Origin: Zootoca vivipara
Taxonomy: Eukaryota
Reading direction: 5' to 3'
NCBI RefSeq assembly: GCF_963506605.1
Contig: NC_083277.1
Location: forward strand, 88,226,001 to 88,290,000
DNA: 64,000 nucleotides
In this document: positions 8,778 to 63,270 of the stretch, in pieces
How positions within the stretch are numbered: position 1 is the stretch's first letter
How the letters are laid out: each line of letters opens with the position of its first letter
Program-made: the position numbers and the translations under genes
The notes under the pieces: generated by a model
Seen by the model: the letters and a program-made list of their open reading frames with translations, nothing else
Databases searched by the model: none
Told to the model about the DNA's origin: nothing

Positions 8778-11434
8778 CTCTATAAAGTAGGACACATGGC
8801 TGCCCCTAGAAACAGGCCCTATCTTACTTACTATTGCTGCGTTAAAAAGCAGCTAAAATTGGAATTTTAACATTTCAGGAGGGCAGGTTTAAAAAAAACT
8901 AAAGAGGATTTACAGGGAGAGACGCAGGTTGTACAAGTTATGTAAAAGTTAGTATTTCTCAATCTGTAGACTTGGAAAGAGATGAAAATAACGTAGGATT
9001 CTACTTAAGATAAATCTCTCCCTGCCCGGTTTTCCTCAGGCTCAGCAATTAAGGGTCTGATGGCAATTCAGTGGCGTGATCTGGAAGAAAAGAAAGTACA
9101 GTACCAGTAACTGAGAAATGCTAACATCCATAGGCCTGAAGGAAGCAGAACTCATCCCAGTTATTTCAGCAGTATTCATACAAAAATACAATTAAGAATC
9201 AAGAGGACAATTTAATGTAGACACAGCACAGAACACCTGAGAGAAGCTTGGGAGGCCCTGCCCTAATTTATACACTTTTGGACACCTTTTTTTTTTGTTA
9301 AAAGAACCGTATCCCAAAATTCAGTGAAGCAGAAATTTCAAATGATAGCCATGTTTTGGTTTGTGTACTGTTTTCAGAGGAGCGAATTAGGTAGATGCAC
9401 ATTTAAATATGTACCAAAACAAAAAAACAAAAAAAAACCATATCCCTAGGCAAAGGAGACAGCAACAGGGTCCTAAAAGTGGCATACGAAGAAGCCTTTT
9501 CATAATGAATTCACCAAAAGTTACACCAAACACTTATGATAGCCAAGACCCTTGATTATGGGAGATAAGGAGTGAATTAGCTACTACAGCAATATTATGT
9601 TTCCTAGTCACCTAAAAGAAATGTATACAATACAATAATCTCTGTCAGCAATGGCTCTCTTTGAAAGATTGCAGGAAGAGCAGTTGCAGCCCTTTCCAAT
9701 CAAAGAAATCAAATCTACTTTATTTCTGAGAGGTGACGATCGAGCAGTTTTTCTAAACAACACATTTTCTTAATGTGCTCACTCTTAATGAATAGAGGGT
9801 GCGAAAAGAGCCTTCAAATGTCTTTTTGTTACCTGCCTATCTTCATGATCAATCTGAAATGAATGATATTCATTTCCCCCCCCCAGGCAGGCAGGAAAGC
9901 AGCCATCATTCATGGTACACATATTAAAAGGCTTCTGACCAAAGAAGGCCCTGTGCATTAGACTGCAACAGCAATATCTATTCAAGGGAGAAGTCTGTAA
10001 GCACTATAGACGGTCTATGTGAGGGTATCATTTCTTTAAATGAACCTGTAATGTGTAAAACAAATGCATAAATCCCAGAGTTCTTATATTTGGCCCAGAT
10101 CATATTCCATCCACAGCTGATGGACATATGCTGCACTCTCTCTCTTGAGAGCTCCAAACACCCACCACAAGTAATAACATGTCAGCGAAAAATAAGCTTC
10201 TTATGGCTGAAACCTAACCCTGGGGACATCGGTAAAAATAGCTCGACTGAATGTGCTCCTTGGAGATGTGCTTGTAAAGGAAACGCTGGTCCCAGGATAG
10301 GAGCACAATTTTTTAATGCCAAATTGGGTTCCCTTCTAAGGGGAGTTTCTCTTTTGTGTGGGGCCTTTCCACATACAAAGCACGTGCTCTATCACTGTAC
10401 TATTTTGTATCTTATTTTTTTGCAGACAGGACATACAAATTTATCAACTGCAGAACAGTCAGAAAGTCTACAGAGGAAAGGTAGACATACCCGTAGTTTG
10501 CTAGGCTGGAAAACTTAAAAGGCATACAGAGGGCAACTGGCCTTGTCACTTTGCATTCAGGAAATTATTAGTATACCCTTATGCTACCGCTTAAACATCA
10601 ATCAGTTCCTTTAAAAAAATCTCATTTTCAGAAACAGCATTTTATGTTTGAGATGGGACTGTCTGGATATGATATGTATTTGAGCCTGAACGTCAGAAAC
10701 AGAGGAAATTGGAATCTCCTGCACTTTGGTTAAATTAGCAAAGACCAGAGTAGGAAACCTTTGCTTTTACTAGAAGGGTATAGCTGGTGATAATGATTAA
10801 AGTTGTTTTAGCTTTGATTTTAGTGCCTAAACTGAAGCTTAGCTCTTTGGAAAATATTACTCTCTAGCTGGCAAAACACAGTGGTGCAAAGTGGAGATAA
10901 CAGGCATTCTGCATCAATGTTTCGGAATTGTGTGCTCTTCGAAGAGTATCATTGGCGCTAGAATTTACAGAAGGTGCACAGAGAATCGGGCCCCTAATCT
11001 CAATAAGAGAGGGAAGCTTCAGCTCCCAAGCTGCAAAACTGCTTATGATCATCCATTACTAACAGGTCCTTCCAAGAAGGCAAAGAAAAAGAATTTAAAG
11101 GGTGAAGAAAGGGAAAGGAATTTACTACAGATGCAAATTTAGTCCTGGGATCTTTTTAGAAGTCAAGAGGCAGTGTGTGGATATTCTTATTTTATCTAAC
11201 TAGAGGAAGAAGTTTCTTAAAGCCTGCTTCAGCTGTTAGCATATGGAAGATATGCTGTTATTCTAAAGGTCACCATTCTGCCTCCTGAGCAACTGTTGTA
11301 TCCTCTCAGGTCTTACTCTGACCTGACAGTCTTTCATCTCCTGACTTTGAAACTCCAAAGCTCAACAGCTTTTCTGGGTGTTCCTGTTCCTTGGGGATGA
11401 AAAAGCCCATTATGCTCATAGAGTGTAGTGGGGG

Positions 11435-12269
11435 TTGCGGACGAGCTCAAAAGAAATCTGGGAGGGGGTGGGATGTAGTTAGGCTGAGTCACGGGGCGTG
11501 CCATTGAGTTGATTGACAGCAGCATTTTACTTAATGCCCACGTTGCTTTCGGTTTCCCTCACTCGGAAAAAACCCTTCAAATCTCCCGCCCGCCGCTGCT
11601 TTTAGGCCTAGTCGACACTGTTTGCCCGTTTGCGGGGGTCGCCTGTATTCAGGGGCCCAGTAGGAATTTTGCCACTTGGCTGATTGGCTGTTGCCATTTG
11701 GTTTTTGCCTACTGACAAGCAAATTGTCACAAGTTGTTAGGTTGGCCGTTAGGCTTTGGTTAAAATTGGTATAGGAGGGGCATGGCATAAAAAATACCTA
11801 CCCTTACTTGCTCCTTATAGAAGTATTCCGTTAAAGGAATCCTGGGGCTCAGGGACTCTAGTCCATTCATCCTGCCATAGGCAAGGATGGTGTGGCCATT
11901 ACAAAGCCGAGCCTTGCGGAACACTCCTTGGGGGAGGAGAGTGCCTGTGAACCGTACCTCCAATCCCTTGGGGTGTTTACTTGACTTACCTACCATTAGG
12001 CAAGTCGGAGCTGGTCCTGACCCAATGGGTCAGATGGAATTGGTCCTGCCCAACCAGGGCAGATGGAATGGTCCTGACCCAATGGGGGTCAGATGGAAAT
12101 GGTCCTGTCCCTTAGAGTGGACAGATGGATTAACCAAAGCCTAAGCCAACACTCAGAATTAAAATGTATTTTGAATAAAGTTGTGGCCAAAATAATGCCA
12201 AAAACCCAAACCTAAAATATCGTGTCAGTTGTGAGTTATTTTGGGATTTCTGGGAGCTTTGTCACGCAA
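11435..12269 (+). mobile_element. LTR-like or tyrosine-recombinase-like solo repeat without TSD (copy A)
   Basis: GGGG|TTGCGGAC...GTCACGCAA; CpG-rich; shares TTCCRTTAAAGGAATCC, CCAAWGCCTANGCCAA and AATAAAGTTGTGGCC with 62765-63270. Confidence 0.65.
12012..12129 (+). repeat. Four tandem ~29-nt hairpin units
   Basis: TGGTC-CTG[stem-loop]CAG-ATGGA x4 with variable but self-complementary interiors. Confidence 0.9.
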
Positions 12270-30501: not shown

Positions 30502-54019
<23,518 letters not shown>

Positions 54020-62003: not shown

Positions 62004-62764
62004 AATTTAGCGTAGCTTGGTAAATAAAATTTGTGTAAAATTATAAAGAAATCATTTTAAATGGTTGCCAAGTACTTGCAGTCATATTTATTTATATATT
62101 ATACATATTTCACATTACCTGACACTTTCAGAAGGTAAAATTAAAATTCTTTGGTTTTCCCAAGAACAGCTTATTTGCTTCTTAATCAAATGTAGACTAG
62201 CCAAGCTAAATGTTGTCCAATCACAAATATAGCTGATTTGAATTCCTCACACCCAAAACCCACATTTTTAAGATCCATCACTGAAGAAATTTACAAAAAC
62301 TAAGTTTCACCCCCTAAAATGACACACCTTACTGGGATCCAGGGTTCGAATCCCACTTAGCCATGAAGCTCACTGGGGGACCTTGGGCCAGTCACTGCCT
62401 GTCAAGTCTAACCTACCTCACAGGGTTGTTATGATGATTAAATGGGGAGAAGGAGAAACAGGTAGATCACTTTGAGATCCCTGGGGGGAAAAAGGTCGTA
62501 TAGAAATGTAATAAATAAATAGGTAGGTAGATAGATAGCCTGAAAATGTGTAACTTAGAAACCTGTACCACAAGTTTTTATTTGAACAAAAGTCTGGTAC
62601 TTCCATCATTTTGAGATGCTCAATAGAAGATAGTGTTTCAATCTCACACACCAGATCTAGATATAATAAGGAAGACGTATCAGTTGCTTACCCAACATAC
62701 ATTCTAAACGATGTTTTACTTGTAGACTTGGAGCAAAGTCTCTCCTCATTGCAGAGGGGAGGGG

Positions 62765-63270
62765 TTGTAAATGGAAGTCACTCCCGCGTTGGCAAGGGGG
62801 CGTGTCAGCCCCTTGCCTTACCTGCCCTTGCTGCTGAGCCACGCCTCCAGTAGCCAAACAAAAGGGCTGGCGCTGGGGTGGGGTTTAGCTGCACTTAATG
62901 CAGCCGCGGCAGTTCCCTGCCTCCATTTTGCACCAGGTTTCCCATCTTTAGGGTGTTCCATTAAAGGAATCCGGCGGTCGTGGATCCCGTCCGATGCCCT
63001 GCTGGTGGCTAGGGCCATGGCACGACCCCCAGTGGCATCAGGGGGAGCTTCCAGTTGTATTTGCATCAACAGGCTCCACCTTCGGGTTGTTAACCTTTGA
63101 TGACTCCACGCTGAGCGGGGGAAGTCATCTAGTCTGTTCATTCCAATGCCTAGGCCAATACCACTCACATGCTGTAACCAATAAAGTTGTGGCCTTTTCA
63201 CCCATTAACTTAAACATTGTGTCCCTGTGTCTTTATTTCCTCAAGCGGGTGGCGGGTTCTTGAATCACAA
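62765..63270 (+). mobile_element. Member of the same repeat family (copy C)
   Basis: GGGG|TTGT...TCACAA; motifs at 62956-62972, 63143-63158 and 63180-63194. Confidence 0.65.

Follow-up and report, generated by a model that had tools for sequence, protein, structure and literature searches.

Selected pairing in a tandem hairpin array of the B repeat of a Ngaro retrotransposon: evidence from copies in the Zootoca vivipara genome

The window analysed here, a stretch of 64,000 nucleotides of Zootoca vivipara DNA, contains at positions 11402-12269 a solo A-spacer-B unit (868 nt) of a Ngaro tyrosine-recombinase (YR) retrotransposon, and an array of four short hairpins lies in its B repeat. Comparison of related copies indicates that pairing in the array is selected, being kept in replicating lineages and decaying after insertion, and that a larger covarying fold of the plus-strand RNA includes the array among its domains. 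We give roughly even chances to the idea that the array is kept paired as a multivalent docking module on this RNA, likely for the zinc-finger Gag (ORF1). All features given below are on the plus strand, in window positions.

The four-unit array reported in the earlier note was present as described, with stems at 12017-12033, 12046-12062, 12074-12092 and 12105-12124, and in the window sequence every unit has GGTC on its 5' side and ATGGA on its 3' side. Sequence and unit comparison place A-U at stem position 4 in units 1 and 3 and C-G in unit 2; unit 4 has U-A, the state of most single-unit relatives. The linkers (11-12 nt), said to be constant, are nearly so but not identical, since they occur in three slightly different forms, ATGGAATTGGTC, ATGGAATGGTC and ATGGAAATGGTC. 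The hairpin noted just upstream (H5, GAC...GTC) was located at 11983-12006 by sequence and comparison with relatives, and the AATAAA noted downstream at 12174. TRF gave a period of 29 for the array (3.4 copies, 82%). It is the sole chain of at least three spaced 6-bp hairpins in the window, and no such chain occurred in 20 resampled windows (0/20), a rarity that is expected from tandem duplication by itself. Compared with shuffles, the 131-nt array by itself folds weakly better (z -1.68, 16/200) and its 431-nt context, closed by a 15-bp perfect helix, folds strongly (z -4.94, 0/100). In the window copy, units 1 and 3, which have a common stem, are predicted to prefer cross-pairing in equilibrium folding (P 0.83-0.92), which in the full context is favoured by 2.1 kcal/mol over four local hairpins.

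The host element was identified from its copies and its full-length relatives. The unit is a dispersed repeat with 3666 first-look candidates in the genome, and 40 scored copies, the window itself aside, have 90-96% identity. Thirty loci have the same ends (...AGCCC / ...CACGCAA), unrelated flanks as judged by eye, short common junction letters and no TSD. Full-length relatives carry A1, ORF1 with a CCCH finger, RT, YR, a GDSL/SGNH ORF, B1, A2, a unique spacer C and B2, and the split direct repeats of Ngaro (A1...B1-A2-B2) were found in L113, L118 and L119. Indeed, the array-bearing full-length L119 reads A1-ORF1(CCCH)-RT-YR-GDSL-B1-A2-C-B2, with all four repeats present. Since L113 (B1-A2-C-B2) and L118 (A1) belong to the window's own family, the window unit is a solo A-C-B unit with the array within B, and the earlier placing of the array in the 3' part of an element is borne out. 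The A repeat, promoter-like in part, covers 11402-11610, with an approximate, inferred 3' boundary (its start corresponds to the A1 of L118, and the sister L119 has an A of 207 nt). The B repeat covers 11742-12269, where both B1 and B2 of L113, 99% identical over 525 nt, align. The poly(A) signal is part of a family hallmark, AATAAAGTTGTGGCC (12174-12188), which has 8368 exact matches in the genome (control 0); in most of 30 fetched YR loci it lies 3' of the YR match. RVT_1 was matched in L119 (E 9e-12) and L113 (E 1e-12), and Phage_integrase in L066 (E 9e-8) and, below the cut-off, in L119 (E 2e-5). The ORF4 that follows YR, counted here as SGNH, matched Lipase_GDSL_2 at E 8e-5, below the cut-off; no methyltransferase was matched in the scanned ORFs of the relatives, as expected for Ngaro. 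A DIRS-like reading with inverted repeats was dropped once the split direct repeats had been found.

Both the host element and the solo units are of kinds already known. Solo AB repeats are described from Cafeteria Ngaro (PMC8547959), and SIRE is described as A2+B2 of VIPER with an exclusive middle of ~30 bp (PMC6681497); as far as the available parts of these two sources go, both are isolated A-(spacer)-B segments with element ends, like the window unit. In contrast to both, the solos studied here bear the array and a covarying RNA fold, and they are more numerous than ORF-B copies even in the youngest subfamilies. In the window's family, the exact C-B junction was matched 136 times and the ORF4-B1 junction 8 times, with patterns that differ in stringency and with one of the eight (L081) belonging to a single-unit sister family. 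Among 20 single-B copies of the youngest subfamilies (L182-L201) there were 17 solo A-C-B and 3 ORF-B copies, and 9-unit solos lay 2-4 mismatches from a full-length end. Since homologous recombination should favour ORF-B, this excess suggests that the element's own machinery may make solos. The exact B|A junction of the window's family had a single match in the genome, outside any element, the junction of the full-length L113 being a variant. That match, an isolated 19-nt junction with no element around it (L032, C1:71542456-71542474), may be due to chance or may be an excision footprint.

Selection on the pairing is indicated by the changes that copies share, as compared with those seen only once. 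With units anchored on CUG...CAG, stem position 4 was Watson-Crick in 36/36 unit types common to at least two copies (U-A in 13, C-G in 12, A-U in 11), against a mean of 12 in a shuffle that ignores ancestry, and in 42 of 49 singleton types; as we read the tree, it holds only about 4-5 independent double changes. In an unanchored test of 45 four-unit copies, counting B1 and B2 of one element as two, none of the stem-breaking changes was shared and 9 were singletons, against 19 shared loop variants and 23 seen once (Fisher p=0.018). The stem changes that did recur between copies came down to both halves of one C-G to U-A swap. For the linker, 4 variants were shared and 14 single, which beside the 19:23 of the loops is weak evidence of constraint. 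Given that stem breaks are singletons and never shared, selection acts on replicating elements and not on the host copy. Moreover, the swap can be followed stepwise from C-G through U·G (L124) to U-A (L076/L080), L124 being sister to the U-A clade on the tree, and U·G also stands at position 4 in the single-unit L153 and L179. Such wobble intermediates point to RNA and speak against palindrome correction in one step. Single-unit families and the distant L027/L173/L181 type likewise retain the CUG/CAG base of the stem, and array homogenisation thus gives no explanation for its conservation. Bulged and mismatched units are stably inherited. RNAalifold on 20 units returned only 5 pairs, with loop gaps misplaced by MAFFT, and end-anchored counts were used instead. 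The earlier note had claimed a selected, modular structure that would be refuted by unit divergence without maintained pairing; the claim is supported by the shared and singleton changes together with the covarying context, and shared unit types do keep their pairing.

This context consists of five hand-named helices (43 pairs). In 15 family representatives they were 94.9% paired, and 12 of the 43 pairs change on both sides (shuffled mean 6.4, 0/500; slid controls 29-47% paired), scores that are inflated by kinship and by derivation of the structure from the same 15 sequences, with several pairs taking three states. Helices spanning about 370-600 nt covary too. The long helix P1 closes the array domain, with its 5' strand at 11742-11763 and its 3' strand, placed by complementarity and covariation, at 12130-12149; it is complementary in 15/15 representatives and 7 of its 18 pairs show two-sided changes. 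The 5' strand of P0 (11726-11735) pairs with AAGTTGTGGC at the poly(A) signal, with 97% of cells paired and no double change, and a conserved hairpin with a GUUAAA loop (11825-11840) has 2 of 5 pairs changing on both sides. Among 631 cells of the five context helices, G·U was found in 25 vs A·C in 7, and the plus strand folds better than the minus strand in 14/15 representatives. The structure had been proposed as RNA or ssDNA; the excess of G·U over A·C, the U·G intermediates and the strand seen in RNA reads argue for plus-strand RNA and against minus cDNA.

Spacer C carries a further hairpin (11658-11714), in which a U4/U5 internal loop is flanked by G-C helices, the outer one covarying. It is found in 15/15 representatives with U runs of 4-8 and 3-7, and it appears ENE-like in form, with a putative triplex. 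The ENE of KSHV PAN RNA and Arabidopsis Evade has, as described in the part of the source available, the same U-rich internal loop and G-C flanks near the 3' end of a retroelement RNA (PMC12501189); the likeness concerns the spacer C hairpin, with its putative triplex, and not the array, and the element here is a vertebrate YR element. At the other end of the unit, a 5' terminal hairpin and a segment complementary to the element's 3' end (11404-11446) were recognised from sequence and resemble a splint of the B|A junction. In the B1|A2 junctions of L113, L066, L074, L067, L073, L119 and L115, a long imperfect hairpin was seen in 7/7 examined, its small internal loop falling on the integration point, and the start of A holds a complement of each joined end, much as a built-in ICR would. 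This segment could act as a splint for circularisation or offer the recombinase a duplex site. The ICR of DIRS-1 is likewise complementary to both joined ends, although in DIRS the repeats are inverted and here the segment is a fold-back at the start of A (PMC7192593, in the part of that source available). The two B repeats of one element may also fold differently: in B1 of L113 (7120-7150) the P1 helix can continue into the ORF4 stop region, and in B2 spacer C pairs with the poly(A)-signal motif, with a pairing probability of mostly 0.8-1.0 vs 0.2-0.6 over its middle. This modelled difference is a possible candidate for a 3'-end switch.

The array arose by tandem amplification, in one clade, of one ancestral stem-loop (CUG-N-CC/GG-N'-CAG). 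In a tree built from B with the array left out (130 rows, 83 of them different), the multi-unit families group as one clade (99/93, the bootstrap not having fully settled) beside single-unit families; only the topology of this tree was used, its unit labels being undercounts. The two branches of the multi-unit clade differ in linker (AUGGAAUUGGUC vs AUGAUGUGAGUC/CUGAUUGAGUC). Unit number runs from 1 to 9 across the fetched unit-bearing loci and from 0 to 9 among families, and 44 of 60 de-duplicated copies of the window's family have four units (range 1-6). In a sister lineage, a hand tally of 80 matches gave 7 units in 22 insertions and 9 units in 16, and the numbers in B1 and B2 agree in 17/17 insertions with both. 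Of the three groups, that with 9 units is the youngest, with 1.0 substitutions per 788 nt; its nearest relative is the 7-unit sublineage, from which it probably descended. A 5-unit sublineage is likewise young (median 2 substitutions), so greater length is not established as better. Units may be gained and lost through reverse-transcriptase slippage across the ~17-nt CAG-linker-CUG block. The earlier argument that neutral tandem duplication would not preserve pairing thus stands in part: the array did arise by tandem duplication, and it is selection that prunes the units.

As regards function, the array-bearing element has an ORF1 that combines a CCCH and a CX2CX3HX4C finger with an RG-rich tail (finger matches are below the cut-off, Pfam E 0.012 and MBNL1 E 0.008), and unit-like hairpins with conserved flanks are confined to B; together, these observations favour a docking module for ORF1p. 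The reader would be the element's own ORF1p, acting during RNP assembly or packaging. As the loops take 36 forms, reading of the loop is unlikely; as the upper stem covaries and the CUG/CAG base is fixed, any reading would be of the stem base and its flanks. The recognised feature would be the invariant CUG/CAG base with its GUC and (A/C)UG flanks, and extra units would add avidity. Retroviral Psi and other signals made of several stem-loops are bound by Gag. Like them, the array combines several short stem-loops on the element's RNA with a zinc-finger Gag; it differs from them in its 3' location, its tandem, near-identical units of variable number and its free loops, and binding is here predicted. 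Unlike a packaging signal needed by all active relatives, the array appears dispensable for Ngaro as a whole. Indeed, an unselected sample of B repeats, some of them truncated (the first 30 hallmark matches on contig 1), held 3 multi-unit, 5 single-unit and 22 unit-less repeats, and families without a unit carry intact ORFs.

A less favoured possibility, though one of some weight, is that the array is a tolerated expansion segment, in which unit number is neutral and units need only fold on themselves, sparing the P1/P0/ENE-like architecture. This would fit the range of unit number (0 to 9 among families, 1 to 6 in the window's family), the youth of both the 5- and the 9-unit lineages and the location of the array within a multiloop whose closing helix covaries strongly. 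However, fold-neutrality alone predicts free covariation at every stem position, whereas the CUG/CAG base never covaries and is kept in relatives that have no array, and linker changes are mostly singletons. More speculatively, and with a rather low probability, the A-spacer-B end of vertebrate Ngaro elements might give rise to an ENE-protected, multi-domain RNA of ~600 nt, spread as a mini-element by the parent's recombinase and competing for Gag through an array of evolving valency (5 > 7 > 9). Such an RNA, if real, would provide split-repeat YR retrotransposons with their first defined cis-acting RNA signal.

Selection at the level of DNA is very unlikely to account for the array. The unit ends would then be E-boxes (CAGATG, CAGCTG, CAGGTG) of an enhancer, in keeping with CACGTG in some loops, the position of B1 just 5' of the A2 promoter, the spacing of about 29 bp and the shared variants of the first linker base (ATG, CTG, GTG), which keep CANNTG; but the two-sided changes and the G·U intermediates are left unexplained, and the shared AAGGA and the CAGAAG/CAGACG variants of single-unit families break the E-box. 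Slightly less credible still is covariation without selection, as a mutational artefact of template-switch palindrome correction and slippage. Short inverted repeats and a reverse-transcription step are known to favour such events, but the persistence of U·G intermediates along a stepwise wobble path largely refutes it; bulged or mismatched units are stably inherited, long-range helices of about 370-600 nt covary as well, and inserted copies decay freely. A hammerhead, relic or active, with an amplified stem I is the least credible reading: in L084-L112, sister subfamilies have GUC-hairpin-CUGA(U/UG)UGA-GUCC...GGAC-GAA, which mimics the type III motif order, but no exact CUGANGA or GAAAC core is present, the window linker is AUGGA, single-unit sister lineages have no core, and a genome-wide pattern for a hammerhead core 5' of the hallmark motif gave one match, a non-hammerhead. 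With no Rfam score above the gathering threshold and no hammerhead core, the processing role suggested earlier finds no support; X17-X19 reads show no pile-up of ends inside the array, where fragmented RNA-seq would hide one.

These reads come from three raw RNA runs of the host species (X17, X18 and X19; about 7.5 million reads each), in which 570, 376 and 213 reads, respectively, matched at a threshold of at least 85% likeness. Most are less than 95% alike and thus derive from related copies. First mates of X17 and X18 map to the minus strand from about 11630 to 12230; given a library of the usual stranded type, this would mean plus-strand RNA. Read depth over the array was 61-128 in X17, 16-70 in X18 and below 5 in X19, and the compensatory 12050/12058 pair was seen in X17 reads (58/73 and 50/65). 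In X19, opposite-strand reads with a depth of up to 87 cover the ENE-like spacer (11632-11717). A separate short RNA, deduced from missing reads over A, was not accepted: A of the expressed subfamily is about 78-84% alike, under the 85% threshold, so this gap is uninformative. Among indexed runs recorded as RNA, none contained the stretch in question.

The closest described relatives are amphibian Ngaro elements of the DIRS-53_XT type, with A1-ORFs-B1-A2-B2 split direct repeats and a B of 152 bp (PMC9210276). In the part of this source available, the repeat plan and the gag-like, RT, YR and SGNH/GDSL ORFs are the same as here; in contrast, B measures 395-708 nt here and a unique spacer C separates A2 from B2. 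The word "hairpin" is absent from that paper. In literature outside the main reviews (Goodwin, Poulter, Butler; Tycowski 2016), Repbase reports and supplements, we found no description of a hairpin array or a covarying RNA fold in the terminal repeats of Ngaro, and possible short-transcript and solo-unit precedents in PAT and TOC1 found no confirmation in the literature. It is an open question how YR retrotransposons choose, protect and prime their RNA; for DIRS-1, the available part of one source states that no primer is known (PMC7192593). Thousands of Ngaro B repeats, natural variants with 0-9 units and recent copies give access to a covariation-backed map of cis-acting RNA, and the 0-9 unit variants are a ready dose series for protein-binding tests.

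Some further observations concern the surroundings of these elements. One family copy (L031) contains a SINE-like element, presumably of the Sauria type, with a 42-bp target duplication, and a full-length Ngaro lies within a ~146-bp satellite array (L072). In the window, 30960-51077 holds what we take, from their motifs, to be myosin heavy chain exons, and 49479-50312, on the minus strand, a presumed Penelope-like RT/GIY-YIG fragment; the surroundings of the insertion yielded no second myosin paralogue. A second Ngaro A-B remnant, internally deleted and belonging to an array-less family, lies at 62735-63270.
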